Positions 1,653 to 44,782 are shown, counted from the stretch's first letter. The stretch is DNA of 57,212 nucleotides from an uncultured virus (IMG/VR IMGVR_UViG_3300029939_000002) (IMGVR_UViG_3300029939_000002), one strand, 5' to 3'. The notes: generated by a model from the letters alone, not told the origin. Numbers and translations are program-made.

Positions 1653-2209
1653 TACAGATCCTCCATGGAAAAACGTGTATATTTAATTTTCTCAACATAT
1701 ATAAACATACGAATAAAGTCTATGATATCTTTAATAACAAATACTGGAATAAATATAATAAAAACTACTAAACCAATAATACTTGTTGTATGAGAATATG
1801 TTCTAGAAATGTATAAATTCAAAGATACACCAAATTTAAATTTCTTATATGAATTATCTACTTTATCTGAAATAAATGTTAATCTCGTAAATCCAATAAT
1901 GTATCCTATTTTCTGTAGTAGAATGAGACTCAATAAAACAAATTCACCAACCATAACACTAAATAAAGATACAATATATGCCGGAATGTGTGTAGATTTA
2001 AAAGTATTTCTAATAGTTTTAATTAAAAACTCCATATTAATACCATAAGGAATACCGCCATATTTAATAAGTTCATTCATATAACTACTAATAGTTTCAA
2101 CTTCTTTTTCATCGATATCGAGTTTACCAATTATATAATTCGATAAATCAATATCTCCCGTAATTTCTTTTGTACGATGTTTAAAAACTAACCATTTTGA
2201 AAAAGCCAT
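1652..2209 (-). CDS. Hypothetical membrane protein
   Basis: 185-aa ORF with two hydrophobic segments and an AAGGA SD. Confidence 0.7.
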   Translation of the reverse strand: MAFSKWLVFKHRTKEITGDIDLSNYIIGKLDIDEKEVETISSYMNELIKYGGIPYGINMEFLIKTIRNTFKSTHIPAYIVSLFSVMVGEFVLLSLILLQKIGYIIGFTRLTFISDKVDNSYKKFKFGVSLNLYISRTYSHTTSIIGLVVFIIFIPVFVIKDIIDFIRMFIYVEKIKYTRFSMEDL

Positions 2210-8469: not shown

Positions 8470-9447
8470 TTAAGCACTGGCCGCCGCGCCAGCGATCTTG
8501 CCCTTGGTCTCGGCACGAGCTTCCTTGCTGGACAGCTGGCTCCACAACCACTTGGCAGCACCGCTGACCTTGGCGAAGCCGGAGACGATCAGATGACCGA
8601 AGCTCTTCAGAACAGCCAGGATCATGTTCCAAGCACCACGAGCGGCGGTGGCGTTGGCGCCGGGGTCCTTGGCATTGATGTTCTTGTCGCAGAGCGCTTC
8701 GATCTTGGCGATATCGGCCTTGGCGAAGTTCGATTCTTTGGCGGCCGCAATGGTGGCAGCTTTGTAATCGATCAGCTCTTTCTGAGCAGCGGCAGCATCC
8801 AGATGGACCTGAGTCAGTTCCATCTTTTCGCCGGCGATGATCTTGCTGGCGTTCTCGGCACAGGTCTTGGCGGCAGCAGGATTGTCCTTGGCCAGGGCGG
8901 CAGCACGATTCAGCTCAGCACGCGAACGACGAATGCACTCCAGCCAATTCTTGACGGCCTGGACGCCGGGGATCTTGACGGCCTTCTTGCCAACCCAGGT
9001 CGCAACGTTGCGGCCAGTTTCGGTCTTGAATCCGGCGATGACAGCGGCGGTAGTGGCAATGGCAATGGCGGCGCCGATGTACCACTTCTTGTACTTGACC
9101 ACATGTTCCTTGGCAGCCTGCCACCAACGAGAGGCCGTCTCCTTGATCTTCTCGCCAAGGCCTTCCAGGGCAGCGGCCTTGTTGAACGCACCAGATTCCA
9201 GGCCGGCGACGCTGCCGAAGACGTTCGGATAAAGAGTTTCCATGCCACCGATTGACTTGCCGGCCTTGATCTGCCCATAGGCATGCTTCATCACGTCGAT
9301 CTGTGAGCTCAGCGACTCCATGGCGAAAGCCGAAGACATGTCACAGGAAGTGTTGCCGAGCATATTGATGGTAGCGTCGATCGCACTGATCGACTTAACG
9401 GCAGTACCGAAGGACTCGGTGCCGGCCCAAACTGAATTGATAGCCAT
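8470..9447 (-). CDS. Putative abundant virion internal head protein (paralogue 3), GC-rich codons
   Basis: MAINSVWAGTE start with AAGGA SD; AME/GME/GLE/ALE sites; TM-like WYIGAAIAIATTAAVIAGF. Confidence 0.75.
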   Translation of the reverse strand: MAINSVWAGTESFGTAVKSISAIDATINMLGNTSCDMSSAFAMESLSSQIDVMKHAYGQIKAGKSIGGMETLYPNVFGSVAGLESGAFNKAAALEGLGEKIKETASRWWQAAKEHVVKYKKWYIGAAIAIATTAAVIAGFKTETGRNVATWVGKKAVKIPGVQAVKNWLECIRRSRAELNRAAALAKDNPAAAKTCAENASKIIAGEKMELTQVHLDAAAAQKELIDYKAATIAAAKESNFAKADIAKIEALCDKNINAKDPGANATAARGAWNMILAVLKSFGHLIVSGFAKVSGAAKWLWSQLSSKEARAETKGKIAGAAASA

Positions 9448-9520
9448 CGTAAATTTCCTTGAAGAAGTTGTTGGATGCATACAACAGAGTAGCAATCTAG
9501 ATTGCCATTTCTCTATATTA

Positions 9521-10285
9521 TTATTTACCAACACGTCCTTTTAGTTTAGCAGTCTTTCTAAACTTAAAGAATAGTGGGTGTTTTTCGATGAGATGTCTAA
9601 AATGAACCGCATTGCAAGGGACCATATCTTTTGGAAGTTCTGACATATTAATAAGAGTATTAATAATAGATTCCATATCTTTACACATAGTTGCCATTTC
9701 AATATATAGCTTCTGATGTATCTTTGCAATTTCTCTAACAGCAACAGTCTGTGCTTCATTAAGACCATTAATTCTAGTAGATCCTTCAAAAATACCAAGT
9801 CCGGTTGTAACAGTCTTTTCGATAATAGAAGGAGAAGGGCCATCTAATGACGACTGAGCTTTTCCAAATCCATCATCTTCATATATGAAATCACTTAAAG
9901 GAAATTCAGTAGCAATGTCTTCAGCTGATTTATCTTCTTCAATAGGATTAATTTCACTCAAGATTAATTTATCTTCTTTAGAACTACCATTCGTCCAAAC
10001 TTCAGGAAGGTCTATTACTGTTTTAGATATATCAGAAGGAGATTTATAAATTATTTCACAATCTGATACATCTAAATGTGTAATTTCAGTTACAACATTT
10101 TCATCAACAAGTTCTTCTTCAGAATCGTCTTCAATAACAACAGGCCATTCAACAATAACTTCTTTATCGACAACTTCGCGATCGGTTGTTTCTTCATTCG
10201 CTAATGTATTCATTTCAGCACTGTCACTTTCTTGTTTATCATTGGGCATTTCTGCCCAAACACTCACGAGTCCATTATTAGACAT
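9521..10285 (-). CDS. Acidic hypothetical protein
   Basis: 254-aa ORF, D/E-rich N-terminal half; has an SVWA motif like its neighbours. Confidence 0.7.
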   Translation of the reverse strand: MSNNGLVSVWAEMPNDKQESDSAEMNTLANEETTDREVVDKEVIVEWPVVIEDDSEEELVDENVVTEITHLDVSDCEIIYKSPSDISKTVIDLPEVWTNGSSKEDKLILSEINPIEEDKSAEDIATEFPLSDFIYEDDGFGKAQSSLDGPSPSIIEKTVTTGLGIFEGSTRINGLNEAQTVAVREIAKIHQKLYIEMATMCKDMESIINTLINMSELPKDMVPCNAVHFRHLIEKHPLFFKFRKTAKLKGRVGK

Positions 10286-16982: not shown

Positions 16983-18206
16983 TTATTTTCCGATTACGGA
17001 CTGAACTTTTGAGAAACTGGCCGGTGTCCACTTGTTATATCGACGCATGAACAACATGCCGAGACTTACAGTCTCGATCGTCCCGTCTTCGAATTTCACC
17101 ACGAAAGTTCCGTCGGTATTTCTCGCAGTAATACAGACTTCGTATCCGTCCTTGTCAAACACACCAGAATTACACCAAGTCTGTATCTGAGTATCCTGAG
17201 AAGGAGCTCCAACAACAGTCTCGATGTTATCTTTATCGAAATTCAATGTACGAATATCGATGGGTGCCGGCCGGCCAGAGGATTTACGAGGAGCCGGAGC
17301 TTCCTCAGTAGAAGAAACATTAGAGACGGGCTCCTGTTTTTCCTCAGGCATATCTGTCGGCTTTTCTTCGACAGAGTTACTGCCAACCGGAAAGACATCT
17401 TCGCCATCTTCGTCGACATCACCTCGATGCTCATCGTTCCGCAGAAACATCACTGGACCAAGTCTCTCAGTCCGAACTATACCAGGAACATAAAGAGCAT
17501 TCGACATTCTGGCAGCATCTTCTGTCGAAGAAACATTGGAGACTGTAAACTCATCTTCGATGTCTTCCTCATTATCGGGCTGGCGACTATTCTGTTGTTG
17601 ATACAACGAAACATCTCTAGTCTGATTCACGGGATGTCGTGTATATTCGCGACCAAGCATTTTACGCTGCTGCTCAACCACACCACGCAGAGAAGATTCT
17701 TCCGGTCTAAAATTGCAAATTTGTGCCAGATCGACGAGGTCGTATCCAGACGACATGATCTCGCGGCTGATCTGACCACTCACCACGGCAAAGACAGGGA
17801 CGACGCCGCGCTTGGAGAGGGTGTCTGCCAACTTCACAAAATCCGAATCATTCGTCGCAAGAATAACACGTTTATATCCTTTAATAGACAAGGTATCGCA
17901 AGCGATATCAAGATCCATATTTCCTTTAATAATAGTTCTTCCAGTAGCCTGATCCACGATGATCTTAGCATCTTTGGTAATCATTCGAAATCCATTTGTC
18001 GACAACCAACGATAAAAGCCATGATTCTTTGTGTATCCGTTTTCATCGGTAACAATAGATGTGTAATAATTAAACAACACAACATCGTAGTTATCAACAA
18101 AGTATCTACGAATAACATCCCAGTCAAAACGATTGTTGGGGTAGATAGAGATGCAAGTACTAGTGACATTAGCACCATCAATAACCATAAGGGTCGTATT
18201 AGACAT
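16983..18206 (-). CDS. NYN (LabA/DUF88, PIN-like) ribonuclease domain with long acidic linker and small C-terminal domain
   Basis: VIDGAN, KGNMDLDIACD and LATNDSDF motifs; start MSNTT has a GAGGA SD; promoter motif at 18268-18275. Confidence 0.88.
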   Translation of the reverse strand: MSNTTLMVIDGANVTSTCISIYPNNRFDWDVIRRYFVDNYDVVLFNYYTSIVTDENGYTKNHGFYRWLSTNGFRMITKDAKIIVDQATGRTIIKGNMDLDIACDTLSIKGYKRVILATNDSDFVKLADTLSKRGVVPVFAVVSGQISREIMSSGYDLVDLAQICNFRPEESSLRGVVEQQRKMLGREYTRHPVNQTRDVSLYQQQNSRQPDNEEDIEDEFTVSNVSSTEDAARMSNALYVPGIVRTERLGPVMFLRNDEHRGDVDEDGEDVFPVGSNSVEEKPTDMPEEKQEPVSNVSSTEEAPAPRKSSGRPAPIDIRTLNFDKDNIETVVGAPSQDTQIQTWCNSGVFDKDGYEVCITARNTDGTFVVKFEDGTIETVSLGMLFMRRYNKWTPASFSKVQSVIGK

Positions 18207-18357
18207 TTGCTTGTTCCTCTGAATATATTTGAACCGATATGCTGTTAAGCACATTTTCTTCAATTTAATAATATATATTTGTTTTATTTTTGAATACAAA
18301 AAATAAAGAATATCTATGAGATGCATTAGCATCTCATAGACACAACGGATGCTAAAT

Positions 18358-18603
18358 TTAAGCAACAGCCTCATCATACGTAAATCGATACTCGTATTTG
18401 AGTGCCAGGAACACAGCCTGGATTTTGTACAAATTTATTTCTTTGTCTGCTTTGTCGAGCTCGGACAGAAGTTCCAAAATATCGGAAACTTCGCACTTCA
18501 TGTCCATGGACAATTGTTTTATTGTTTTGTTTTCAGCACGCAGAACACTTCTGATCTTTGCCGCTGTATCGAAGCACAGTTGGGAATAACGAGCGTCGTT
18601 CAT
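18358..18603 (-). CDS. Small XRE/Cro-like helix-turn-helix protein
   Basis: KIRSVLRAENKTIKQLSMDMKCEVSDILELL pattern; AAGGA SD. Confidence 0.55.
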   Translation of the reverse strand: MNDARYSQLCFDTAAKIRSVLRAENKTIKQLSMDMKCEVSDILELLSELDKADKEINLYKIQAVFLALKYEYRFTYDEAVA

Positions 18604-21775: not shown

Positions 21776-22228
21776 CTATAAGGAAAACATATCTGTGTAT
21801 AAATTTCCCTGTATAATTTCTTTAGTATATCTTTCTAGGTCGAATGTATTATACCAATAAGGACCAGATGTGTATATATCTTTAATGACGCCAAAACTTA
21901 TCATTTTAGTATAAATATATGATAACAAATAACTATCAAGCATAACTGGACTATTACAAATATTAGAATATTCAGTAGTTACTGTAACACCGTCTATTAT
22001 ATCTTGTGAATTTTGTATATGTTTTTCATAAGAATAAATCGTTCTTTTAGTAACTATGATTCTATTCTCTGCATGACTATATTGCACAAACTTATACATT
22101 CCAAAATATTCACCTTCATCATTAAGAAATAATAATAGTGATTTTCCATTATTACTTGATTGAAAATTGAATAAATACCATAAAAGATCCCAACCATTCC
22201 CATCAAACTCATGAAGAGTATTATTCAT
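21776..22228 (-). CDS. Hypothetical protein
   Basis: 150-aa ORF. Confidence 0.6.
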   Translation of the reverse strand: MNNTLHEFDGNGWDLLWYLFNFQSSNNGKSLLLFLNDEGEYFGMYKFVQYSHAENRIIVTKRTIYSYEKHIQNSQDIIDGVTVTTEYSNICNSPVMLDSYLLSYIYTKMISFGVIKDIYTSGPYWYNTFDLERYTKEIIQGNLYTDMFSL

Positions 22229-22248
22229 TATAGAATTTTTCCTTTTTA

Positions 22249-23121
22249 TTATTGTGGTTCGGATTCACAAGCTTCGTCGGTAATCTCTTTGTTATCAATA
22301 TACTCTGATTTTGATACTAAAAGTTTAGGAATAGGTGGAAGATTTAATTGGTCCTTGTTTTCTTCATCGTATGTTTCTGTATCTAAAGATACTGCATGCA
22401 ATTTAAACATCTTTCTATTAAACCGTTCATCATAAGCTCTTTTAGTACGACATGGATGACAATCACCACATTCAATTATTTCATTATTTCTTTCATAAGG
22501 GAATTCGCAAGTCCACACCAAATGATATAAGTCTCTATCTTTTAAAGCATTAACAACTTGTTCTTTTGTACGCGCAGCCATCACATTACCATTAGGTCTA
22601 CATAAAGGGAACAAAAGGTTGGTCGTTTTTCCAAATGTTATATAAGTAAGATTTTCGAAAATATAGACGAGATAATCTAACATTCCAATAATACTATCTC
22701 CGGTGATATACCCGATATTTAAAGATGCGTGGTAAGGTTGTAATACATAGATACTTGTTATAATCCAACTCGGCGGTTGACAAAGACAGACATGATTGTT
22801 AAGAATACCTCCTCTAAAATCAAGCCCATCGTCGACAACAAACCATTTTATAACCTTACCAAATTTAATATCTTTTTTGTCTTTTTCGTTTTTTATTTCT
22901 TTTAGTGCATTTAAGATGTCTTTTATAGCTTGTTTTTCTCTTTTATATTTATTGACATCTTGGCCACAATAAATAGTCAAAATATCAATATTATTACCAC
23001 TTTCTAATTCTTCTAAGATCATATATGTTGAATCCAGACCACCACTCATTAAGAACAGTTTTCTATCTTCTTGGTGTGACTGATCGGTATTAAGATCTAT
23101 AGTCTCATATGTCGGATACAT
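22249..23121 (-). CDS. queC: QueC-like PP-loop ATPase (7-cyano-7-deazaguanine synthase family)
   Basis: LMSGGLDST PP-loop, Y.GQ...E, TK..V, WTCEFP...ECGDCHPC zinc site. Confidence 0.85.
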   Translation of the reverse strand: MYPTYETIDLNTDQSHQEDRKLFLMSGGLDSTYMILEELESGNNIDILTIYCGQDVNKYKREKQAIKDILNALKEIKNEKDKKDIKFGKVIKWFVVDDGLDFRGGILNNHVCLCQPPSWIITSIYVLQPYHASLNIGYITGDSIIGMLDYLVYIFENLTYITFGKTTNLLFPLCRPNGNVMAARTKEQVVNALKDRDLYHLVWTCEFPYERNNEIIECGDCHPCRTKRAYDERFNRKMFKLHAVSLDTETYDEENKDQLNLPPIPKLLVSKSEYIDNKEITDEACESEPQ

Positions 23122-23167
23122 TTCCTCTCCTTAAATGGTATGATAGATGGACATTAATGTCCATCTA

Positions 23168-23560
23168 TCACTTAAATTCAAAAATAAGATCTTTTTTATT
23201 ATTATAAACTTCTTGTATTTTATTATTAATTATATTAAAATGAAACTCTACAAATCTATCTGGATACCCAAACGCAGGATATAGAGTTAATAATCGGTTA
23301 TCAAAATCTATCCATTCGTCATTAGTAGAAAATTTTCCTGTATTAACCATGTCTATATATATTTGAGTAAAAATACTATGCGAAGATCTACCAATATCTC
23401 TTATTTTTAGATAACCCTCTCTGGAAAATTCATAGTGAATAAGATCGCATGATAGTTGTTTTGTCTGAAACGTAACAAAAGGTTCGTTTTTAAATCTGTG
23501 TGGAATAAATATATTAAATTTATTGTCAGTAGGTATATAAAAATTATCATACATCCCCAT
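23168..23560 (-). CDS. Hypothetical protein (MGMYD...FQTK type)
   Basis: 130-aa ORF. Confidence 0.7.
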   Translation of the reverse strand: MGMYDNFYIPTDNKFNIFIPHRFKNEPFVTFQTKQLSCDLIHYEFSREGYLKIRDIGRSSHSIFTQIYIDMVNTGKFSTNDEWIDFDNRLLTLYPAFGYPDRFVEFHFNIINNKIQEVYNNKKDLIFEFK

Positions 23561-24290
23561 TTGTATTTTCCTTATTAATACTGATATATTTAATTTCTAT
23601 ATTAAGTTTTCCAGGAACCTGAACTTTGCTTGGACCATAAACTACCTCAGCATCCAAGTCGTTTACTTCTCTTTTAAAAACTTGTAATACTGATTCATCA
23701 GAAGTAAAACTCAATTCTGTATCGACTTTATAGTTATTTTCTCCAAATAATTTTACCATTTTTCTATTTTCTAATCTAACAATTTTATCAAGAACTTCAG
23801 GATCTTTGGATATTGATAAATATGAATTTGTTTGTTCCGTTAAGCTTTCTGAATCAGTACTATATATACCAGATGATATTTTCGTACTATCTATCTGGGT
23901 AGATGTTATGACATTAATATTGAAGTCTTTAACAACTTTACTAAATCTATCATACATATCTTTATACATTTTAAGAGAATATGGATTATTATTACAAGAA
24001 GCACCATACAGGGAATTCCATCTAAGTTTTATCACATCATTAAAATAAATTACTGCCCTATTTATGTTTCTTGCTTTCATAATGAGACGTAAATAATAGC
24101 TATCAGATTTATAAGTATTATCGATATAGTCTTTTAATTTTATCTTTATTTTAATATTAACAACAATACAATCAGGTATAGCAGTGTTGATATATTGTTT
24201 AATTTTACGTATAGCATTTAATTTTCTAATATTATCTTTTTTATATCTAGCCAGCCTCTTTTTATTAGCAGATCGTATTTTCATAAGCAT
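23547..24290 (-). CDS. Hypothetical protein
   Basis: 247-aa ORF; promoter motif at 24326-24333. Confidence 0.65.
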   Translation of the reverse strand: MLMKIRSANKKRLARYKKDNIRKLNAIRKIKQYINTAIPDCIVVNIKIKIKLKDYIDNTYKSDSYYLRLIMKARNINRAVIYFNDVIKLRWNSLYGASCNNNPYSLKMYKDMYDRFSKVVKDFNINVITSTQIDSTKISSGIYSTDSESLTEQTNSYLSISKDPEVLDKIVRLENRKMVKLFGENNYKVDTELSFTSDESVLQVFKREVNDLDAEVVYGPSKVQVPGKLNIEIKYISINKENTNGDV

Positions 24291-24415
24291 TATCCTTTTG
24301 AGAAGCTATAGTGTGTTTCAATTAAATAATATATATTTTATAACTTTATGAAAAAAATAAAATAGAGAACAGGATGGTCCGTCGGACCATCCTGTTCGTC
24401 GTATCTTGCAGAAAA

Positions 24416-24491
24416 TGGCTGGGATAGTAGGACTCGAACCTACGACATGGTGGTTAACAGCCACCCGCTCTACCAACTGAGCTATATCCCA
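24416..24491 (-). tRNA. tRNA-Asn(GTT)
   Basis: Cloverleaf TGGGATA...CT-GTT-AA...GTTCGA...TATCCCA-G-CCA. Confidence 0.95.
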
Positions 24492-24496
24492 TCATT

Positions 24497-24573
24497 TGGT
24501 GCCCGCAGTAGGATTCGAACCCACGACCCCCGGATTACAAATCCGGTGCTCTACCAGCTAAAGCTATACGGGC
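24497..24573 (-). tRNA. tRNA-Thr(TGT)
   Basis: Cloverleaf, CCGGA-TTTGTAA-TCCGG anticodon arm, encoded CCA. Confidence 0.93.
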
Positions 24574-25007
24574 ACTAAATGAAATTATAAAATAAATAAA
24601 TTGCTTTTTTGTGACATATTATTATCATCTGTTTTTAATGTTAAGTTTTATACAAAAAACAAATGTGTGATAGTTTGTTAGACTATCACACACTCATTCT
24701 AATACATCTTCACTTTAAAGACTATTTACGTAATGCATCAGCCATGGTTCTATGCACATCAAATATTCTTTTTCTGCCAACATAATCATCATGTGCCGAA
24801 ACGGCATCTTTATAATGAACATATGTATATACCGTGCCTTTGTCACCATTGAGGAATAATACTCCATATTGTCCGTCTTCGTCTGGAGTATTATCAACAG
24901 AGACAGACTCTAAATTCGTAAGAGTGAGATGGGTTGCTGTGGATCATTTCCTTTTGGGATATATGTACTATCAAGATGTCCATATGCTTTGGTAATTTCA
25001 GATTTTA

Positions 25008-25313
25008 TTATTCGTCAACAACGATAGCAAGACGAAGGCCCATACTTTTCAAGATCCTAGAGATCGTAAGAAGTCTAGGAAGACGATTCTGTCGCAGAGC
25101 ATAATAAATGCCCTGCTTAGTAACATCAGAGTTACTAACGATTTTCTCGACGCCGATAAGTCTGATAGCATTTTGAAGTTCTTCAGGAAATATCGTATTG
25201 TGGTTTTGATCTTTTTTGAAGAGATCGTCCAGATGTTTAGCCATATCTTCACGATGAGATAGCTCATCGATAGGATGAGCAATAGATACCATTTGATAAT
25301 TCATGATAGTCAC
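25008..25313 (-). CDS. Addiction-module antidote-like HTH protein (HI1420-downstream type)
   Basis: G...I......KQGIYYAL.....P.L.TI..IL..MGLRL pattern; promoter motif at 25331-25338. Confidence 0.75.
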   Translation of the reverse strand: MTIMNYQMVSIAHPIDELSHREDMAKHLDDLFKKDQNHNTIFPEELQNAIRLIGVEKIVSNSDVTKQGIYYALRQNRLPRLLTISRILKSMGLRLAIVVDE

Positions 25314-25387
25314 TCCATATTTCTAAATAAGTAATATATATTTATTTTTTGTATAAAACTCAAAATGTATTAAAAAATAAATGAACT

Positions 25388-25424
25388 TGTCACATACATG
25401 GACATTACGTCCATGCATGTGACA
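25388..25424 (-). terminator. Intrinsic terminator closing the RNA island
   Basis: TGTCACATGCATGGAC-loop-GTCCATGTATGTGACA hairpin followed by a U-rich tract on the minus strand. Confidence 0.65.
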
Positions 25425-25858
25425 GCCCGATAACATCGACCTAAAAGTTAAGTGGAATTTAGAATGGTTTCATCGATCGCTTGGCGTCCGATGGCAAACA
25501 TAGTTCGCATCCCTGGTTACATCACCATAAGTTTTTTAACACACCAGGACTTTGGTAAGTCATTAATCTTATCTCGGTCGTCAGACTTACAATTTATCCC
25601 GAGACCAGCCCGTTTCACTGATTTCTAGCGACTATGGCCAAAATGCCGATCCGAAGATGGACACCCTCTAACCATTAATGCATTTGTATGCTTTTCCGAC
25701 AACACTGACACATACATGCCGGTGAGCAGTCCAGACTCAGTTAACGGAGCCAAAACTTTTAAAAGAACCGATACACTGTCCCCACTTTCATGGATCGGTG
25801 TGCATACTCAAATGCCTTACTCAGAAGGACCCGAAACTGAAGAAGATGTATGGCAGCT
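25425..25858 (-). ncRNA. Structured non-coding region including an H-type pseudoknot (25555-25605)
   Basis: No credible ORF; interleaved stems GTCTCGG/CCGAGAT and GTAAGTC/GACTTAC; further hairpins. Confidence 0.55.
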
Positions 25859-25903
25859 TAGCGATCCCAGTAGGACTCGAACCTACGACCTGCCGCTTAG
25901 AAG
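25859..25903 (-). pseudogene. 3' half of tRNA-Arg(TCT) (anticodon loop to acceptor; ends CTA)
   Basis: CTTCTAA-GCGGC-AGGTC-GTAGG-TTCGAGT-CCTAC-TGGGATC-G-CTA; no adjacent 5' half. Confidence 0.8.
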
Positions 25904-25919
25904 ATATATGGTATCTTAG

Positions 25920-25962
25920 TGGTCTCCAGGTCAGACTCAGACCGACTATCCCGGATTAGAAT
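25920..25962 (-). pseudogene. Second, degenerate 3' half of a TCT-anticodon tRNA
   Basis: TTCTAA-TCCGG-GATA-GTCGG-TCTGAGT-CTGAC-CTGGAGA-CCA. Confidence 0.55.
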
Positions 25963-25974
25963 ATTTTAAATGAT

Positions 25975-26054
25975 TGGCGCCGCAGGAGGGATTCGAACCC
26001 CCATGTGTCCAGTTACTCTTTCAATAGCTTAGAAGGCCAAGGAGATACTGCGGC
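25975..26054 (-). ncRNA. Non-canonical tRNA-Arg(TCT)-like RNA with no D-arm before the anticodon arm and a D-loop-like segment after it
   Basis: GCCGCAG/CTGCGGC acceptor, G-CCA end, canonical T-arm, TGGC-CTTCTAA-GCTA arm, then TAACTGGACA. Confidence 0.8.
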
Positions 26055-26066
26055 GAATTCAATGTA

Positions 26067-26074
26067 TTAATATA
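26067..26074 (-). promoter_or_regulatory. Early promoter variant (TATATTAA) immediately upstream of the tRNA-like RNA
   Basis: Same ATATATATT context as the other copies. Confidence 0.6.
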
Positions 26075-26131
26075 TATTTATCTTTGAAATAAAAAATAAG
26101 CAGCTGCCTGAAGAATTTAATATGTATAAAC

Positions 26132-27270
26132 TAAGGAGAACACCGAACATAGCAACATCGGGGGATTGTGTTGCGCGGAGGCCCATTCCGTGTTCGGTGT
26201 TCACCTTAATCTACACTAAAGAAACCGTAGTGGGAGACCTTTTCACGGATCTCCCACATAGCGGGTTGGCGGTGACAAAATCACTTCATGCCTTGCTTTC
26301 AGACACAGAACACTTATGGACACAGCAGTTGTGTGTATACGGAAATGATCCCAAGATAACTCTCATCGTATGTTCACCGCAGGATAGTCCCTGAGTGACT
26401 CCAGATGACTTAAGTTAGAGCCGGCGATCGTAGTCCTGGTATACCTTCCATGTTCTTCAGCCTGTTAGCAGATCGTTGACGAGTTACGCCCATATCCATA
26501 CATCGGCCGGACCGGTGCGGATTAAGACATATGCCAAAACATACGATCTAAAGCAGGAAAGTTGTCCGTTCGAGACGGACCGATATTCTCTCGATACACT
26601 GGGTGTCAATGCATGAAAGAACAACAGAGCCCAGTTAGGAGGCCATATCACACAGTCTCCAAACCCGGCTGTTCGCCACCGCTCATCATTCATCATTTTG
26701 GACCACATAGGACAACTCCTAGGCGTACTACGGTGATGAGGGATAGATGGTTAACCTTAAGCGGTAAACTGTTATGTCATTGAGTCATAACAGCTTTGTG
26801 ATAAACATTTCAACAAACGAGGGTTTTCTCCGAGAGAGTCAATAAAAATGTTCAGATAAGGACAATGTGGTTATTATAACCTGTGCGCATGCGAAGCATG
26901 GCATCAATTCCACTAGATCCTCGTAGCGCAATGGTTTCTTGGGGGCACATGGGTCTGGACACTGTTACCAGATATCCAGCATGATGGCTTTGTTCTCACC
27001 CATACTGTTGCTACCATCTTTTTGAAGGTGTAAATGTTCACCTAAGATGTCTGAACATGTTCATTAACTCTTTAGAGAGTACAACTTCATCGTTGGTGTT
27101 TTTTTTACTTATGCTACATGACATAGCTATCTCTGCCGAGGCATTGCACCTCAGATGTGGTCTTAGAAGTTCAATCTATGAAGAACGAACCTGCATGATC
27201 TGGTCATGCTTATATCTCCTGAGGTTACCTATTACAGTACGGAGAGATCTGAACTTCCAACTAGACCGTT
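26132..27270 (-). ncRNA. Series of structured RNA domains (unknown ncRNAs)
   Basis: GC-elevated, no credible ORF; long-range closing helices at 26132-26208, 26365-26547, 26848-27058 and 27159-27267. Confidence 0.6.
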
Positions 27271-27282
27271 ATGGAAAAAGGT

Positions 27283-27358
27283 TGGTGGACGCGGTAGGAT
27301 TCGAACCTACGACCAGACCGTTATGAGCGGTCGGCACTAACCGCTGTGCTACGCGTCC
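27283..27358 (-). tRNA. tRNA with CAT anticodon, probably Ile2 (lysidine) rather than Met
   Basis: GACCG-CTCATAA-CGGTC arm; paired G1-C72, no initiator GGG/CCC. Confidence 0.9.
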
Positions 27359-27431
27359 ATTTCCTTTATAACATGAGTTTATCAATATCTAAAAGAAGAC
27401 ATAGATAAGCTCGTCTCTTGTTTTAAAAAAA

Positions 27432-27507
27432 TGGTGAGCATGATGGGGCTCGAACCCATGACATCTCGATTAAAAGTCGAGTACTCTACCAACTGAGTTA
27501 CGTGCTC
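27432..27507 (-). tRNA. tRNA-Lys(TTT)
   Basis: CTCGA-CTTTTAA-TCGAG anticodon arm, encoded CCA. Confidence 0.95.
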
Positions 27508-27566
27508 ATTGTATGTCATCGAAAATTGTTGGTGGAGGGGTGTAAGTTATAACTTACACCCCCTCA

Positions 27567-27655
27567 TGGTGCGCGTAGTGGGGATCGAACCCACGGTGTT
27601 TCTTATGTGTCAGATTTTAAGTCTGATGCGTTTCAGCCAGCTTCGCCATACGCGC
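27567..27655 (-). tRNA. tRNA-Leu(TAA)
   Basis: TCAGA-CTTAAAA-TCTGA arm, long variable arm, encoded CCA. Confidence 0.93.
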
Positions 27656-27659
27656 TTGC

Positions 27660-29100
27660 AGATGCTCTGGATTCCACAGAGCTCATCGTGTGGGGTACGA
27701 CTCCTATCAGATGTGTATATCTGCCGATCTCATAATGCAAATGCTATTAACATCCATGGGGGCATTACATCCGATAGTATGATGTTGATCAGATCATCGG
27801 ATCTGACTTTTCCGACATCACATAGTTTACAGGACAAATTAGTTACCTGCTCTACGATACCAATCTTGAGCAAGTCCTCTGATCTGGAGGGTTCGTGGAG
27901 AACGACATATCTGCCAGAAGATGCCCGAAATAAATCGCGCATAGCCAACTGCACAAAATGCTAGTCAGCAAGCTGGGTCTCAGTCTAACGGTATCGCCAC
28001 TTAAGAGGTTTCGCGAGATGTGTCTGGTGGATCAGATGGCATTTTTTCAGCCCAAACCCACCAGACACATGCTCACTTGTAGATTTAGAGACACGGTCTC
28101 AACTGTATATCTACCAGAGTTAGTGCGATACCAGATTGCGGGATACATGACCCTTATCCAGACAACACACAGTTATTACGTTCGTCGTGGTATTAACAAT
28201 GTAAAGAACAAACACACAATGGATCACATATGGATCACTGTCGTGTATAAGTCATAGATAATCACAGTTCCCTTCTTGGGAATCGTATGATCATCTCATT
28301 GCACACCGCCACATCATCGATCATCTATAGCTGATCTCAACGGCGTGTTTACCACAACAAACATCTTCGATATGCCAGCATCTACAGCAACGATAAAACG
28401 TCGCATAATATCAGCGCCAGCACACCTGGTCAGTACTTTGTCCTGCCTGTTAGACCATCGTCGTAACTAGGTTTCGATCTATGGCTATAGATCATCTTCA
28501 GTAACTTGGACAAAGAAAGAAAACTCATGAAAACAAAGCGTGCTCATGTGGGAATATTCCGGTATTCCATATTGGTATCTTCTACGGCGTCATCCCCTCC
28601 AAGGACCAGGACACGGCATTGACAACAACTCCACACGAGAACTCTCAAGTCAACCGACGCAACAAGGTGTTTAGGTCCGTTAATTCCATGCACCTTGACC
28701 AGAATGTTGTATTTCTACAAGTCGACTTGATATTTGCTATACATCTGCATTATCAGGACTTTTAAAACATGCTTCGAAAACTGATAGTCGCCGGATTGCA
28801 TGTTAGTGGCAGATGTTACGGTGTTGTGCTAGCACACTGACCTGCATGTGGTTAGCCGTCCTGACGCGAAGGGCGCGGATGTTACCTTCGTCACAACACT
28901 ATCTTAATTATACTCTCAACATATACCCAGGTTTAGATGATTTTCATCACCTTGGTCGAGAGCCCACAGTTGACTAATACACTAAAATGAGAAAGGACAC
29001 TCATTTTCCTGGAGAACGGATCACAGCGGGGCGGTGCGGATCAGAGCAGAAGGTTGCTACACTGTGAAATTCAACTGTAGTTTAACTTTTTATGATCAGG
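27660..29100 (-). ncRNA. About 1.4 kb of structured non-coding sequence between an early promoter and tRNA-Leu
   Basis: No credible ORF; many helices, e.g. 13-bp ATGTGTCTGGTGG/CCACCAGACACAT nested inside GGTATCGC/GCGATACC (27990-28132). Confidence 0.6.
28436..28515 (-). ncRNA. Type I hammerhead ribozyme
   Basis: CUGAAGA core, stem II GAUCUAU-AGCC-AUAGAUC, GAAA, short imperfect stem III, GUC cleavage triplet, stem I CUUUGUCC-AA-GUUA/UAAC-AGGCA-GGACAAAG. Confidence 0.85.
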
Positions 29101-29110
29101 TTCCAATAAA

Positions 29111-29118
29111 TTAATATA
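29111..29118 (-). promoter_or_regulatory. Early promoter variant heading the RNA island
   Basis: ATATATATTAA. Confidence 0.6.
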
Positions 29119-29149
29119 TATGTATAAATATTTTGAAACTTATTTAACA

Positions 29150-29239
29150 TGGCGGATGGGGTGGGATTCGAACCCACGGTAAGCTCACACCTACGACGGT
29201 TTTCAAGACCGTTGCCTTAAACCACTCGGCCACCCATCC
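29150..29239 (-). tRNA. tRNA-Ser(TGA)
   Basis: ACGGT-CTTGAAA-ACCGT arm, long variable arm, G-CCA end. Confidence 0.95.
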
Positions 29240-29265
29240 TTTTTCCATATCAACTGAGTCAAATA

Positions 29266-29589
29266 TTATTCGATATCGGTATCATTGTAATTGAAAATAA
29301 CGATCCGACGACCATTGATAGCATCACCGATGATCTTTGTTCCTGGAACAAAAGTCACGGCTTCTGCCACAGCATACGATCCGTCAGGACTGCGCTGTTG
29401 CGTTGTCACCTGGACAACACAGCCAACACCAACGATTTCCATAGCTTTGGTCGACTTCATCCAACCCTGTTCCTGGGAACTAGCTTTGCAGATAAGTTGG
29501 AAGGTATCGCCATTACCAAAGACCTTCAGATCGCTGATGTTCTTTTTAGCACCATTGATATCGGTGACGTCCATATTTTTTTCAATCAT
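29266..29589 (-). CDS. Small phage protein (GWMKSTKAMEI.GVGCVVQVTTQQ type)
   Basis: 107 aa, GGAG SD, GC-richer codons. Confidence 0.8.
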   Translation of the reverse strand: MIEKNMDVTDINGAKKNISDLKVFGNGDTFQLICKASSQEQGWMKSTKAMEIVGVGCVVQVTTQQRSPDGSYAVAEAVTFVPGTKIIGDAINGRRIVIFNYNDTDIE

Positions 29590-29628
29590 TTTTCGACTCC
29601 ATTTTCACAAACATATAATAAATACTAT

Positions 29629-30066
29629 CTATATTTTTTTATTTCTCATAGCACGACGAGGCCTTTTATATCTTTCGATATTAATAATATTATCATCTGG
29701 AAGCTTTGCCATAGATCTAATAATAGTATCAACAGTAGGCATCATAGCAGATGAATCAGTTATATCTTTGAGTTCTGGATGTTCTTTAAGATATTGATTT
29801 GTATTTTCAATATATCTATTAAGATCTTCATTTGTATAATAAAGACCAGTATATTTAGGATCAGTTAATTTACCATCAGAACCATATGCTCTACCGGTCT
29901 TTAATGCGAATCCTTTTTTAAGAGCATTATCCATGTAAGAAACAACTTCATGTAATTCACAATTAATATACCATTTTAAATTATCAGTTTCACCAGCTCT
30001 AAATCCTTCATCGGATGGTGCTGTAAATGGAAGAGTATCAAAAGTATATTCAAAATCTTTATCCAT
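29629..30066 (-). CDS. Hypothetical protein
   Basis: 145-aa ORF with AGGAG SD. Confidence 0.7.
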   Translation of the reverse strand: MDKDFEYTFDTLPFTAPSDEGFRAGETDNLKWYINCELHEVVSYMDNALKKGFALKTGRAYGSDGKLTDPKYTGLYYTNEDLNRYIENTNQYLKEHPELKDITDSSAMMPTVDTIIRSMAKLPDDNIINIERYKRPRRAMRNKKI

Positions 30067-30082
30067 AAAGATGCTCCTTTTT

Positions 30083-32197
30083 CTAAGCCCTTAATTTCAA
30101 CATAAGATTATAAAAAGATTTATTTTGATAATAGTGAGCATTTGTATTGAATTCATAATTTTCATTCGCTGCAACTTTATGAGCCAATTTCTTGATTTCA
30201 TCACTTGAAATATTATTATTATCATTAATAGCTGTAATGAATATATCTTCATCTTTAGTCATTTCATTATTAGTATGTCCCATGAGATCATAAACAGAAG
30301 ATCTACTCCATTCGAGAATTTCTTCAAGTCTTGTAGCTAGATTGGCTTCTTTAGTATTGAGTAATAGTTTATAAACATAAACTTGAGTATCTTGTCCAAG
30401 TCTAAATGCTCGCGCAATAGCTTGTTCCATTTCATAATCTCTAAATGGAAGATTAAAGAAAATAATAATATTTGCAACAATGAGAGTTATGCCAGTAGAC
30501 ATAGATTGTATTGTTGCTAATAATGGATTTACTGTTTTGTCTGATTTAAATTTATCTATGATATTACCAAGATCTGCATTCGTATCACCATAAACACAAA
30601 GAGGATTAAACCCGGCTTCTTTAAAATATCTTTCACCTTCTTTAATAGCATCAACATAATTACTAAAACATATAGTTTTCTTTTCAGCATTTTTAACAAT
30701 TTCATCAAGGCCTGCATGTCTAATAAGTTCTTTGTGTAGCTCTACTCTTTTCCTACCTATTTCTGCTAACCATTCTCCCATAACAACCATCTTAACATAT
30801 TTAACAACTGATTTAGATTTAATAAACTTATCTTTTATATCCTTAGGTAGATTGGGTATAATCTTAGTCTTTTCATAAGTATTACAATAAATAGACATGA
30901 AACCCATGGTAATAGGATCGTATCCTTTCTTTATCTTATTAATATAATCGAGATATACATTAAACTCATGAAGATCTTCTTTCGATTTTAATGTTCTTTC
31001 GTGATCTCTTATAACCGATATAAATAGTTTTTCATGTACATCCATCTCTTTATCATATTTTGTCATTTTATCTATAAAGAATTTCTTACACTCTATTTTT
31101 AAAAACGGTAAAGTATATTTGTCACTATCTGGTAATGTAATAGAAATAGTTTTTTCAATGGGTTTTTCAGATCCCATAATAGCAGACTTAGGAATTGTAT
31201 GTGAAACTAATGATATTCTATTCTGTAAGATATGGGCAGCAGATCCTGCCGATCTACTATAGATTTTTAAGAACCTATCTTTAGCATAATCATCAAATAA
31301 CGGATCTGTAACTTGTAACAATGGCACAACTTCTCTACCAAGTGCTTTCAGTGGAGTACCAGATGCCGGAACGATGTTTTGTGCATTTGATGCTTCACAA
31401 CATTCAATATAAATATTGGTTCTCATAGAACCTAATTCATTAAGATTATGACACTCATCTATACCAATAAACACTGAAGGATATTTATGTTTATGAAAGA
31501 ATTGTAATAGTTTACCAATAGCTTCATAATGAATAAAATACCAATCATAACCAGGAACGATTTCATCTTGTTCATCTGACCTAAATACTTTCAACTTATT
31601 CTTCTTACCAAAAGACTTTGGAAGTTCTTCATCGACCCATACTTTTGAAATCGTATGTTTTGGACAAATAATAACTTTGAATTTAGCTTCTGAACATAAA
31701 CCCATAGCAAGTAACATACCAGATTTACCACTACCAGTCGCTGCATCCAGTAAGAAACCTCTTAATTTTAACTTAGGAATCTTTAAATTATATTCTTTTA
31801 ATGCTTCCAATTGAATAGGAAGTAATGGCCTAGACAATTCAGACAATCTACTTAGATTTAAAGGTACTGATTTTGGTGGCTCAAAAGCAGACTTATACCA
31901 AGTATGTAATTCTATTTGTTTTAAGAGATCCTTAATGTGTGATCTAGTTGTATATATATGCCCTTTTGTCAGCAAGATCTTAGTTAATATATAGTAGAGA
32001 TCTGGTATAAAAAACTTATGAATAACAAATTTATTATATGTTGCTTTATGTAACATATATTTTTCAATAAGTGGAGACCCTAATGTCTTAACAAAATCTC
32101 GTCTTAAATTATTTGATTGTATATTCGAAAGAGTAACAAATTTAGAACCTGGAGTTTCTTCTACTTTTATAGAAAAAATATTTAGGATAGAAAACAT
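30083..32197 (-). CDS. Superfamily 2 (DExH, SNF2-like) helicase
   Basis: DAATGSGKS, IDECHN, SGT, STGITL and QAIARAFRLGQ motifs; GGAGGA SD before ATG 32197. Confidence 0.9.
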   Translation of the reverse strand: MFSILNIFSIKVEETPGSKFVTLSNIQSNNLRRDFVKTLGSPLIEKYMLHKATYNKFVIHKFFIPDLYYILTKILLTKGHIYTTRSHIKDLLKQIELHTWYKSAFEPPKSVPLNLSRLSELSRPLLPIQLEALKEYNLKIPKLKLRGFLLDAATGSGKSGMLLAMGLCSEAKFKVIICPKHTISKVWVDEELPKSFGKKNKLKVFRSDEQDEIVPGYDWYFIHYEAIGKLLQFFHKHKYPSVFIGIDECHNLNELGSMRTNIYIECCEASNAQNIVPASGTPLKALGREVVPLLQVTDPLFDDYAKDRFLKIYSRSAGSAAHILQNRISLVSHTIPKSAIMGSEKPIEKTISITLPDSDKYTLPFLKIECKKFFIDKMTKYDKEMDVHEKLFISVIRDHERTLKSKEDLHEFNVYLDYINKIKKGYDPITMGFMSIYCNTYEKTKIIPNLPKDIKDKFIKSKSVVKYVKMVVMGEWLAEIGRKRVELHKELIRHAGLDEIVKNAEKKTICFSNYVDAIKEGERYFKEAGFNPLCVYGDTNADLGNIIDKFKSDKTVNPLLATIQSMSTGITLIVANIIIFFNLPFRDYEMEQAIARAFRLGQDTQVYVYKLLLNTKEANLATRLEEILEWSRSSVYDLMGHTNNEMTKDEDIFITAINDNNNISSDEIKKLAHKVAANENYEFNTNAHYYQNKSFYNLMLKLRA

Positions 32198-32262
32198 GTA
32201 TCCTCCTAATAAAAAGAATCTATACAATGTTTTAAGGGGGAATATTATTCCCCCTTATATTC

Positions 32263-43607: not shown

Positions 43608-44660
43608 TTATGAGATCAGGTCATCTTCGTCGCCGGAAACTTTCCAGACCGAAGCTTTGTTCTGAGCGGCTTTGGCCTGCTTAAGCGAATTCAGATGATC
43701 TTCGGTCTCCTTGGCCAGCTCTTCGAACTTTGAAGAAAATTCGGAAATGGCCAGACGAATAGACGGGAAATCAGGAGATTCGAAGATGCCACTGAACGAC
43801 CTGGTCGCCGACACCTGCTTGAACTCGGACTCTGCATCGGTAGAACCGATGATAGTCAGAATGGATTCATAGACATCAGAATCTTCCTGGATCGCAGAGC
43901 TGACGATCTCGTTTGAATTGGTGCATCGCACATTCAGGCACTTGATGCCGGGCGTCGTCGACTTGTGCGCGATGAAATTCAGGAAATCAGACGGATCGAT
44001 CTCGTTGATTTGCGTCGTGAAAATCTGAAGAAACATCTTGAACAGATTGGTGACTTCCTTGTCGACGATATTCCGCCCATACTTGTTGTCGTAGATGATG
44101 AGCGGAATAGAAATGCCATTCTTTTCGCAGATGCTAATCAGCGACTTAGTGGCACCCTTCATGTTGTCGGAATGCTGCTGCGAGGATTCGTGGTCGGCGA
44201 TGGCAATGCCGATAATACGAATGCTCTGATCGCGACGATGCAGTTCTTTGGCCCACAACGGACCGATCACAGAGCCAGAACCGCCAGACTTGCCGAAAAC
44301 GACAAATGCAATGTCTTCATTCACGTGGTCGACTTCAGACAAGGCAGCGGCGATAGTACGGCTGTTTTCATTGCGATCGCCGCCAGAACCGACGGCGGCC
44401 GGCGTCAGAATCGTAACATCGATATTGGTGTCGATGCGATTCGATTTATCGGCAGTATCGAAGATCTGAATATGGGCAGATTCGGGAAGCAACATCGAAA
44501 CACGATTGTAAGTATTGATGCCAGTACCACCACAGAAATAAAACGAAATCGTAGGAGCATTTTTGGCAGCAATGATCGTCTGGACTTCAGGTGCCCGCCG
44601 CTGGGTAGAAACAATAAAAGACGGAATACCGGGGGCAACTTTAGAATCGTTCAGAGACAT
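43608..44660 (-). CDS. phuZ: PhuZ phage tubulin
   Basis: FYFCGGTGIN, DT, GSG.DR, tubulin signature GKSGGSGSVIGP, EID..D, acidic D-D-L-I C-terminus; promoter motif at 44713-44720. Confidence 0.88.
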   Translation of the reverse strand: MSLNDSKVAPGIPSFIVSTQRRAPEVQTIIAAKNAPTISFYFCGGTGINTYNRVSMLLPESAHIQIFDTADKSNRIDTNIDVTILTPAAVGSGGDRNENSRTIAAALSEVDHVNEDIAFVVFGKSGGSGSVIGPLWAKELHRRDQSIRIIGIAIADHESSQQHSDNMKGATKSLISICEKNGISIPLIIYDNKYGRNIVDKEVTNLFKMFLQIFTTQINEIDPSDFLNFIAHKSTTPGIKCLNVRCTNSNEIVSSAIQEDSDVYESILTIIGSTDAESEFKQVSATRSFSGIFESPDFPSIRLAISEFSSKFEELAKETEDHLNSLKQAKAAQNKASVWKVSGDEDDLIS

Positions 44661-44782
44661 GTGATGTCCTTTCAAAAGGAGAAACAAAATTAGTCAAGAT
44701 TTGACCAATAAAGTAATATATACTTAAAATGATATTGAATTAAAAATGGTACTACCTGGAATTACCCAGGTAGTACCCATAT

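Follow-up and report, generated by a model that had tools for sequence, protein, structure and literature searches.

The locus described here is a 3.7-kb stretch at positions 25388 to 29118 of a 57,212-nucleotide (nt) window, the window being the whole stretch of DNA that was analyzed, from the uncultured virus IMGVR_UViG_3300029939_000002. The source record is a single contig of 208,374 base pairs (bp) from a peat-derived giant phage with a genome GC content of 32%. The stretch, referred to below as the island, holds transfer RNA (tRNA) genes, tRNA-like elements, a hammerhead ribozyme and four further segments, RNAs A to D, that are found as RNA in metatranscriptomes. These features and the promoter-like motifs and terminator around them are as follows, from high to low coordinates.

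29100-29138, minus strand: early-promoter-like motif 1, core TATATATTA at 29112-29120; putative start of unit 1
28541-28906, minus strand: RNA D, from contigs 28541-28811, 28585-28703, 28632-28906, 28726-28865 and 28742-28892 (depth 3-64)
28436-28515, minus strand: type I hammerhead, from a regular expression for the core and folding; the sole minus-strand candidate outside coding sequence
27656-28452, minus strand: RNA C, a large structured RNA of 797 nt from 28452 to the 5' end of tRNA-Leu; predicted 3' product of the hammerhead
27572-28422 (depth 151), 27692-28416 (110) and 27772-28432 (118), minus strand: RNA C contigs from three runs
Within 27570-28452, minus strand: RNA C contigs from the fourth run, one at 28050-28452 (X20, depth 18) and another at depth 2.6
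27567-27655, minus strand: tRNA-Leu(UAA), from ARAGORN and Rfam; CCA encoded
27537-27562, minus strand: perfect 13-bp palindromic hairpin without a loop, between tRNA-Leu and tRNA-Lys (I25)
27432-27507, minus strand: tRNA-Lys(UUU), from ARAGORN and Rfam
27283-27358, minus strand: tRNA-Met(CAU), from ARAGORN and Rfam
26623-27282, minus strand: structured spacer (z-score −5.6), with closed domains at 27267-27159 and 27058-26848 and a relic of the tRNA-Met 3' half
26280-26622, minus strand: RNA B, from contigs 26280-26564 (depth 107), 26332-26622 (108) and 26328-26604 (78)
26124-26216, minus strand: long hairpin with 26-nt arms, 85% complementary, at the end of unit 1 (I1; local z-score −10.5)
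26057-26094, minus strand: early-promoter-like motif 2, core at 26068-26076; putative start of unit 2
25975-26054, minus strand: tRNA-like element (UCU), Rfam tRNA score 29.2 bits (threshold 29)
25862-25915, minus strand: tRNA-like minihelix of acceptor stem and T arm only, Rfam tRNA score 24.7 bits, below threshold
25492-25754, minus strand: the part of RNA A seen as RNA, from contigs 25492-25736 (depth 41) and 25523-25754 (2.9)
25464-25590, minus strand: conserved double-pseudoknot motif of RNA A (alignments A2, A3 and A4; 109 bits with covariance model R1)
25388-25424, minus strand: intrinsic terminator hairpin of 17 pairs, at the end of unit 2

The coding capacity of the island was examined. 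GC content is 0.42 to 0.49 over 25450-29650, compared with 0.23 to 0.33 in the flanks. Stop-free runs reach at most 88 codons on the gene strand; for the opposite strand the maximum is 155 codons, against shuffled sequences with a mean of 115, a 95th percentile of 153 and a maximum of 200. Three-base periodicity is 4.6, compared with 58, 82 and 17 for three genes of the window, and none of the five island open reading frames (ORFs) tested had a Pfam match. The original prediction had described a GC-elevated stretch without a coding ORF, bounded by early-promoter motifs and a terminator and containing tRNAs and a hammerhead, and on each of these points it was borne out. That proteins are nonetheless hidden here, by a changed genetic code, frameshifts or very short genes, is highly improbable. 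A frame of 119 codons (28546-28903) spans RNA D when TAG is read through, and RNA D has a periodicity of 12.2; this frame, however, contains two internal TAG codons and a stop at each end, its sequence does not resemble that of a protein, no single reassigned stop codon opens frames through the island, and the flanking genes read normally in translation table 11, in addition to the low periodicity and lack of Pfam matches already given.

Next, the signals at the boundaries were analyzed. The motif TATATATTA occurs on the minus strand at 29112-29120 and at 26068-26076 and is often extended to TATATATTAC-TTTATTG. Seventeen copies are present in the window (5.4 expected; none of 100 shuffles reached 17), 16 of them on the gene strand, and genome-wide the gene strand carries 44 copies and the other strand 2. 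A review on the RNA polymerases of jumbo phages describes their early promoters as conserved AT-rich motifs of ∼10 nt centered near −10 (PMC7598289). The island motif is likewise AT-rich, is ∼10 nt long and lies upstream of operons on the gene strand, and the likeness of the motifs suggests that transcription would be early. At the low-coordinate end, the terminator is a hairpin of 17 pairs (25424-25388).

The three island tRNAs (Leu, Lys and Met) were each called by both ARAGORN and Rfam. Together with tRNA-Ser(UGA), tRNA-Thr(UGU) and tRNA-Asn(GUU), which lie just outside the range, they make up all six ARAGORN calls in the genome. The tRNA-like element at 26054-25975 combines a 7-bp acceptor stem and an encoded CCA with a perfect T arm and an anticodon loop of CUUCUAA (UCU); its D arm is cut to 4 nt, it carries an 18-nt insertion, and ARAGORN at default settings makes no call. 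With relaxed settings, ARAGORN was inconsistent on the second tRNA-like element and placed a doubtful "tRNA-Gly" beside tRNA-Leu. Shortly after tRNA-Met, at 27273-27246, comes a degenerate 28-nt copy of its 3' half with 79% identity (repeat D9). The palindromic hairpin at 27537-27562 may be a processing site.

To determine whether the island is represented as RNA, Logan contigs from four metatranscriptome runs, belonging to four studies, were placed on positions 22000-32000 of the window; the contig figures given here are from the 32 contigs listed, with 64 further, and those for loose ends are from the ends listed, with 36 further. Contigs 100% identical to the window cover RNAs A, B, C and D, with depths of up to 151, whereas the listed contigs over the flanking protein genes have depths of 2 to 6.7. 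The low depth of the flanks relative to the island argues against carry-over of DNA. Island RNA, as the original prediction required, is present and abundant in the metatranscriptomes of all four studies. In all 10 of the listed loose ends that bear adapters, the low coordinate carries the read-1 adapter and the high coordinate the other one. This uniform orientation indicates stranded libraries and RNA from one strand; with the usual antisense read 1 this would be the minus strand, in agreement with the tRNAs, promoters, terminator and hammerhead. The listed contigs leave 26676-27009, 28453-28540 and 25755-25860 uncovered, and only the unbridged hammerhead site was used as evidence.

The hammerhead (28515-28436) was characterized base by base. 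Its 5' part consists of distal stem I (CUUUGUCC, 28515-28508), AA and proximal stem I (GUUA), followed by the core CUGAAGA (28501-28495) and, inserted between A9 and G10.1, an additional U (28494). Stem II (28493-28476) is GAUCUAU-AGCC-AUAGAUC, with 7 bp and a closing G-C pair, after which GAAA (28475-28472) follows. Stem III has 3 bp (ACC and GGU) and a 13-nt loop, with A28472 pairing to U28454 as the closing A-U. C17 is 28453, in the triplet GUC, and the predicted cut falls at 28453|28452; beyond the cut come UAAC, AGGCA and then GGACAAAG (28443-28436). Stem I is bipartite (4 + 8 bp), formed by 28515-28508 and 28505-28502 against 28452-28449 and 28443-28436. All of the conserved core positions are present (C3-A9, G12 A13 A14, A15.1-U16.1 and H17). 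The minimum free energy (MFE) structure forms distal stem I and stem II; proximal stem I (UAAC/GUUA) and stem III were read from the sequence.

The contigs bear on the predicted cut. RNA C contig X20 ends exactly at 28452, the three others end 20 to 36 nt inside the product (28416-28432), and none of the 32 contigs listed crosses 28453|28452. These ends are consistent with in vivo cleavage, short of proof. The hammerhead, found by core regular expression and fold and not by Rfam, is like the Rfam Hammerhead_1 type in having the core, three stems, GUC and an open stem I that contains an internal loop; unlike the Rfam hammerheads, it has the extra U after A9 and a 3-bp stem III with a 13-nt loop. 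The Rfam miss is likely due to the inserted U and the short stem III, and curated models thus miss functional-looking hammerheads that bear a single core insertion. For hammerheads flanking prophage genes, a role in processing long phage transcripts has been proposed in a report that also notes natural insertions in the core (PMC3088659).

RNA C, immediately downstream, is highly structured. The full RNA folds to an MFE of −285, compared with −229 ± 8 for 20 shuffles (z-score −6.7), and the segment 28452-27772 folds to −249, compared with −195 ± 7 (z-score −7.8). In control folds, the plus strand of the same stretch gave −3.3 and a GC-rich coding control gave −1.8. Long helices of 12, 15, 11, 16 and 9 bp have pair probabilities of 0.8 to 1.0, and a core of ∼620 nt is closed by 28446-28437/27838-27829 with a pair probability of 0.95. 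One strand of this closing helix coincides in part with the 3' strand of stem I in the hammerhead, so the two pairings exclude each other; this sharing of a strand with a downstream RNA is a further difference from the Rfam hammerheads. The folding model suggests a switch of helices upon cleavage. Two contigs run from RNA C through tRNA-Leu and stop at 27570-27572, near the tRNA 3' end, and some RNA C may therefore stay joined to the tRNA. No homologue of RNA C was found among 50,697 phage records (blastn in distant mode, E up to 1). When the contigs carrying RNA A were searched by BLAST with the island, only tRNA pieces and the RNA A motif itself were returned, with no RNA C, and Rfam searches (6.2 kb and 821 nt, E up to 10) gave no family for RNA C, with only two weak matches to microRNA families.

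Among the remaining segments of unit 1, RNA B folds with a z-score of −2.8. The spacer between RNA B and tRNA-Met has no depth in the bin 26676-27009 in any of the four runs, among the contigs listed. A search of RNA B plus spacer (26080-27282; blastn in distant mode) against the 50,697 phage records gave only a 34-nt match at chance level (E 0.1); it falls at ∼26766-26799, in the spacer rather than in RNA B, and inside a T4-like coding sequence. RNA D lies upstream and would belong to the 5' product that the hammerhead leaves; its MFE structure contains the three hairpin domains, and no homologue was found in the 50,697 phage records (blastn in distant mode).

The original prediction had divided the island into eight domains of 80 to 210 nt closed by long-range helices. 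Terminal helices of 8 to 12 bp were present for all eight at the coordinates given in the prediction, although only four of the domains clearly beat shuffled sequences (stand-alone z-scores of −5.5, −0.6, −5.4, −3.1, −6.8, −1.5, −2.4 and −0.5), and by our own estimate 8-bp helices are expected by chance at such density. As units of RNA these domains did not hold up, for the RNAs observed are larger (at least 263 nt for A, at least 343 nt for B, ∼800 nt for C and at least 366 nt for D). Folding better than shuffled controls, a further expectation, was seen for RNA C and the spacer, was modest for RNA B and for RNA A (−1.6), and was absent for RNA D (+0.1); covariation was obtained for the RNA A motif and not for RNAs B, C and D. 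No single known Rfam family accounts for the non-tRNA parts, in agreement with the prediction: the Rfam search of these parts gave no match to GOLLD, ROOL, RNase P, tmRNA, 6S, SRP, group I or II introns, riboswitches or ribozymes. A tmRNA match at 27530-27563 (11.2 bits) was judged to be noise.

The carrier of the island was placed by its proteins. A tblastn search with the helicase that adjoins the island (30083-32227, minus strand, 714 amino acids) gave matches in 214 phage records, none reaching 60% identity; the best matches listed are phiKZ-like jumbo phages at ∼33 to 35% identity. In a collection of 5.8 billion proteins, the closest non-self relative of the helicase is 44% identical. A GC-rich gene at 43608-44687 (minus strand) has a weak match to tubulin/FtsZ GTPases (24.7 bits, below threshold), which fits a candidate PhuZ spindle protein of nucleus-forming phages. 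The helicase likeness and the weak tubulin match point to a phiKZ-like (Chimalliviridae-type) phage without close sequenced kin. Three IMG/VR contigs represent essentially the same phage, with 0 to 1 mismatch across 2.6 to 5.4 kb of the island, and at least half of the island's words are present in 18 DNA runs labeled peat metagenome.

We consider it probable that the island is an RNA-gene cluster of a nucleus-forming-type jumbo phage, organized as two noncoding minus-strand operons that are processed into tRNAs and stable RNAs. Unit 1 would run from ∼29105 to ∼26110 and comprise RNA D, the hammerhead, RNA C, tRNA-Leu, tRNA-Lys, tRNA-Met, the spacer, RNA B and the long hairpin; unit 2 would run from ∼26062 to 25388 and comprise the tRNA-like element (UCU), the minihelix, RNA A and the terminator. 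Each unit would be headed by the phage's own AT-rich, early-type promoter motif. The hammerhead would cut the primary transcript once, between 28453 and 28452, and host tRNA-processing enzymes, presumably RNase P and RNase Z, would cut the RNA at the tRNAs as well as at the tRNA-like element and the minihelix. Self-cleavage would free the 5' end of RNA C (28443-28436) from stem I, allowing it to pair with 27838-27829 and close the ∼620-nt domain. Two kinds of product would result: tRNAs, all of which decode codons ending in A or U, in keeping with an AT-rich phage, and stable structured RNAs, RNA A among them with a terminal four-helix double pseudoknot conserved among jumbo phages. A noncoding, promoter-headed stretch with abundant RNA, tRNAs and a hammerhead with a matching contig end is best read as a processed polycistronic transcript. 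The same proposal in the original prediction, of a polycistronic RNA cut by tRNA processing and self-cleavage, stands as the best reading on the strength of the promoter, the abundant RNA, the hammerhead and the contig end at the cut; the sizes it proposed for the RNAs were too small.

Could the non-tRNA parts merely accompany the genes of a tRNA operon, as leaders, spacers and decayed tRNA genes, and be stable by-products without function? We regard this as unlikely. There are two tRNA relics (27273-27246 and 25915-25862), RNA D folds at +0.11, RNAs B, C and D lack homologues, and structured fragments can accumulate in libraries depleted of ribosomal RNA through stability alone. Against this reading stand a GC content of 42 to 49% held over 3.7 kb in a genome of 32% GC, a ribozyme exactly at the 5' end of the most abundant RNA, the −7.8 z-score of RNA C with its strong strand asymmetry, depths of 41 to 151 for RNAs A, B and C, and an RNA A motif (below) that covaries across phages whose helicases are ∼31 to 35% identical or undetectable.

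Several observations weigh against the two-operon model. Contigs cannot show strand, true ends or single transcripts, and the adapter-flanked ends vary between runs (26280-26564 compared with 26328-26604), so that they may mark amplified single fragments and not RNA termini. No Rfam hammerhead model matched at E up to 10, on 6.2 kb or on 121 nt, and the MFE favors a rival local hairpin in place of stem III and proximal stem I. Two contigs span the junction of RNA C and tRNA-Leu, the site of a presumed RNase P cut. Most 120-nt windows of the island have unremarkable folding z-scores in a local scan; the fold of RNA D does not surpass those of shuffled sequences, and the z-score for the whole of RNA A is only −1.55. 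RNAs B, C and D have no homologues, hence no covariation. The tRNA relics show that part of the island is decaying tRNA sequence. For RNA A, coverage by the listed contigs ends at 25492 and 25523 and does not reach the proposed 3' strand of its helix P3 (25468-25464).

RNA A provided the comparative evidence. Its first relative came from a blastn search of 25388-25860, which matched a single record, an unannotated 536-nt gap in Pseudomonas phage phiHQ (83% identity over 65 nt). By pattern scans, covariance model R1 and further blastn searches, a family was built in which a motif of ∼100 nt is present in seven lineages: the peat phage, phiHQ, Ralstonia phage RP13 and four IMG/VR contigs, namely G001 (88 kb), G002 (20 kb), G003 (318 kb) and G004, where it has the same coordinates as in Pseudomonas phage Psa21. 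In the four cases where a whole genome was searched (the peat phage, phiHQ, G001 and G002), the motif was present once per genome. Among the four IMG/VR contigs, a phiKZ-type helicase was found in G004 only, and the motif thus crosses phage groups. No family of Rfam 15 matches any member.

The motif consists of four helices with two pseudoknots. P1 is a 4- to 7-bp hairpin, its loop having CUGACG at the start and UUAAUG at the end; in PK1, the junction sequence AAGK pairs with an MCUU located in the loop of P2, which has 5 bp; and P3 pairs 5 to 6 nt just before GAUGUAA with ACCNNN, which AAA precedes. In the peat phage, these are P1 at 25590-25585/25560-25555, PK1 as AAGU/ACUU, P2 as CCUGG/CCAGG ending at 25512, and the P3 3' strand as ACCAU at 25468-25464; an alternative P3 partner, GCCAU at 25495-25491, would sit at the very end of the RNA. 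The P3 3' strand follows P2 after 4 nt in four compact members and after an insertion of 35 to 45 nt in three phiKZ-like members. About 40 positions are invariant, most of them unpaired.

Covariation was then assessed. In a six-sequence alignment of P1, PK1 and P2, 90.6% of the cells are paired, both sides change at 10 of 16 pairs, and none of 500 shuffles was as good; sliding the partners by 1 to 3 columns lowered pairing to 19 to 52%. In the four compact members, aligned over all four helices, 97.5% of the cells are paired and 10 of 21 pairs are compensatory, with at least one in every helix (0 of 500 shuffles), and the corresponding slide by 1 to 3 columns gave 17 to 46%. The sequences are few and related, so the shuffle control overstates significance; the stronger evidence is the slide control together with the covariation of all five P2 pairs.

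The surroundings of the motif vary. In RP13 and G001, the P3 3' strand ends 1 to 4 nt upstream of a tRNA-Leu gene, and in G003 a tRNA-Met gene precedes the motif by 12 nt. The upstream neighbor in G002 is a Pistol ribozyme (RF02679, 48.9 bits, threshold 34.5; L014, 1674-1730, minus strand), ∼105 nt away. The motif sits in an intergenic gap in phiHQ, where a terminator follows, and in G004; in the peat phage it comes after two tRNA-like elements and before the terminator. These varied contexts suggest that the motif has repeatedly been placed where RNA processing will release it. The Pistol ribozyme of G002 stands where other carriers have tRNAs or tRNA-like elements; unlike G002, the peat phage has no Pistol match in Rfam, and the motif itself matches no Rfam ribozyme family.

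Some candidate members and readings were rejected. Among prokaryotes, of which 185,579 species were scanned with one genome each, 13 pattern loci were obtained, and all of them fail R1 (the best, L062, at 12.8 bits). In the scan of viral contigs, L009 is a chance match within a coding region. Nine of the 17 metagenome loci lie under seven sequences that lack the motif and fail R1, namely L015, L017 (with its duplicates L018 and L020), L019, L021, L027, L029 and L030, and the L021 variants L023, L026 and L028 were judged by eye to be chance matches. Five readings of the motif were considered and dropped. As a hammerhead, it has CUGACGA and lacks the GAAA/GUC arrangement; as a box C/D-type kink-turn (GUGAUG/CUGA), its C-stem cannot form; and an RNase P P4-like AAAGUCC, a hairpin-ribozyme loop B and a likeness to the 16S rRNA 3' end were discarded on reading the motif sequences.

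Other observations were made in the genomes that carry the motif. In Psa21 (MK552327, 44135-44208), the motif lies under an annotated "hypothetical protein", and in L048 an 89-amino-acid ORF on the opposite strand (1402-1671, minus strand) overlaps it; that gene call is probably spurious. Within the tRNA array of G003, ARAGORN called a tRNA with anticodon CUA (L047, 828-901, plus strand; labeled tRNA-Pyl). It would be a tRNA of the amber-suppressor type, which hints that TAG may be read through in that phage. The tRNA region of G001 is very large, with eight tRNAs in 3 kb around the motif (L008) and tRNA-like BLAST matches over ∼35 kb (G001:C1, ∼38-75 kb). In G002, further downstream (∼1300-1370), there are tandem units of ∼10 nt and an AT-rich stretch with AATATATATTA.

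A role of the RNAs as decoys or mimics against host defense (tRNA-cleaving nucleases, type III toxin-antitoxin systems, CRISPR or signaling nucleotides), an idea raised in the original prediction that would be one functional form of the two-operon model, is improbable in our estimation. Circumstantially, the early-type operon stands beside tRNAs and tRNA-like elements, the long invariant unpaired stretches of the RNA A motif are as a specific binding site might be expected to have, and a gene for a HigA-like antidote lies just downstream of the island (25313-25008). Repeat analysis, however, found no ToxI-like array and no CRISPR-like repeats in the island, no Rfam riboswitch or mimic matched, and the phage is uncultured, with no known host or defense system.

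The non-tRNA RNAs would most likely be trans-acting structured RNAs that travel with the phage tRNA set, in the manner of GOLLD and ROOL or of the T4 RNAs rnaC and rnaD. For function, we would place trans-acting RNAs tied to tRNA and translation supply, a role proposed for GOLLD and ROOL, first, functionless by-products second and defense decoys third. A more specific proposal, which we advance tentatively, joins two claims: that RNA C is a previously undescribed giant structured RNA, analogous in function to GOLLD and ROOL, that matures by a helix switch coupled to the ribozyme, and that the RNA A motif, common to jumbo phages of Pseudomonas and Ralstonia, represents a new compact double-pseudoknot class, catalytic or with a specific binding role, that is released by tRNA processing or a ribozyme.

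Comparison with known systems shows both likenesses and differences. Like GOLLD and ROOL, RNA C is large (∼620 to 800 nt), highly structured, phage encoded, abundant and located beside tRNA genes; unlike them, it has no family-model match and no homologue in the collections searched, and its 5' end, predicted to be made by a hammerhead, and its phiKZ-like jumbo-phage carrier set it apart. The two are described as often lying near tRNA islands, the GOLLD linker sometimes holding tRNAs (10.1101/2024.12.08.627333). The T4 annotation gives rnaC and rnaD (species 1 and 2) as small stable RNAs of the T4 tRNA cluster that are released with the tRNAs. The island RNAs likewise belong to the small, stable type encoded in a phage tRNA cluster; as a difference, the RNA A model R1 scores no more than 4.2 bits on the T4 RNAs (filters off), with no sequence likeness. 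A literature search found no relevant paper on hammerheads with tRNAs in jumbo phages or on noncoding RNA in Chimalliviridae.

Precedents exist for stable RNAs within the tRNA clusters of phages, for giant RNAs next to their tRNAs and for hammerheads in their transcripts. Four points are new. A phiKZ-like phage combines all three; a hammerhead variant that Rfam does not detect stands at the 5' end of an abundant, ∼800-nt RNA; that RNA, RNA C, has no family; and the double-pseudoknot family of RNA A is absent from Rfam 15. Large structured RNAs beside phage tRNA genes, such as GOLLD and ROOL, rank among the most striking RNAs of unknown function. The island places such an RNA in another phage lineage, shows its natural abundance directly and offers a defined maturation route for RNA C, whose 5' end would be set by the hammerhead and 3' end by a tRNA. 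The RNA A motif is small and strongly conserved, and its presence in cultured, tractable phages (phiHQ and Psa21) makes its function testable at the bench.

Further observations concern the genome around the island. The 101-amino-acid protein encoded just downstream (25008-25313, minus strand) has its own TATATATTA motif at 25332-25340; it matches PF21716, "probable addiction module antidote protein" (33.9 bits), and PHROG 4268, a transcriptional repressor, and is HigA-like. Many other patches of 53 to 61% GC occur in the genome (for example, at 141800-142600, 154000-156200, 162200-163200, 170400-170800, 182200-183400 and 205600-206800 of the phage contig, G000:C1), and the patches checked within the window sit in long ORFs, such as 8470-9534, which has no Pfam match. 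A 464-amino-acid protein encoded at 16983-18377 (minus strand) has an NYN ribonuclease domain (PF01936, 55 bits); judged by this domain, it could be an RNA-processing enzyme of the phage, perhaps relevant to the island RNAs. At 22249-23121 (minus strand), ∼1 kb from the tRNA-Thr and tRNA-Asn genes, lies a gene for a QueC-like protein of queuosine/7-deazaguanine synthesis (PHROG 1550).

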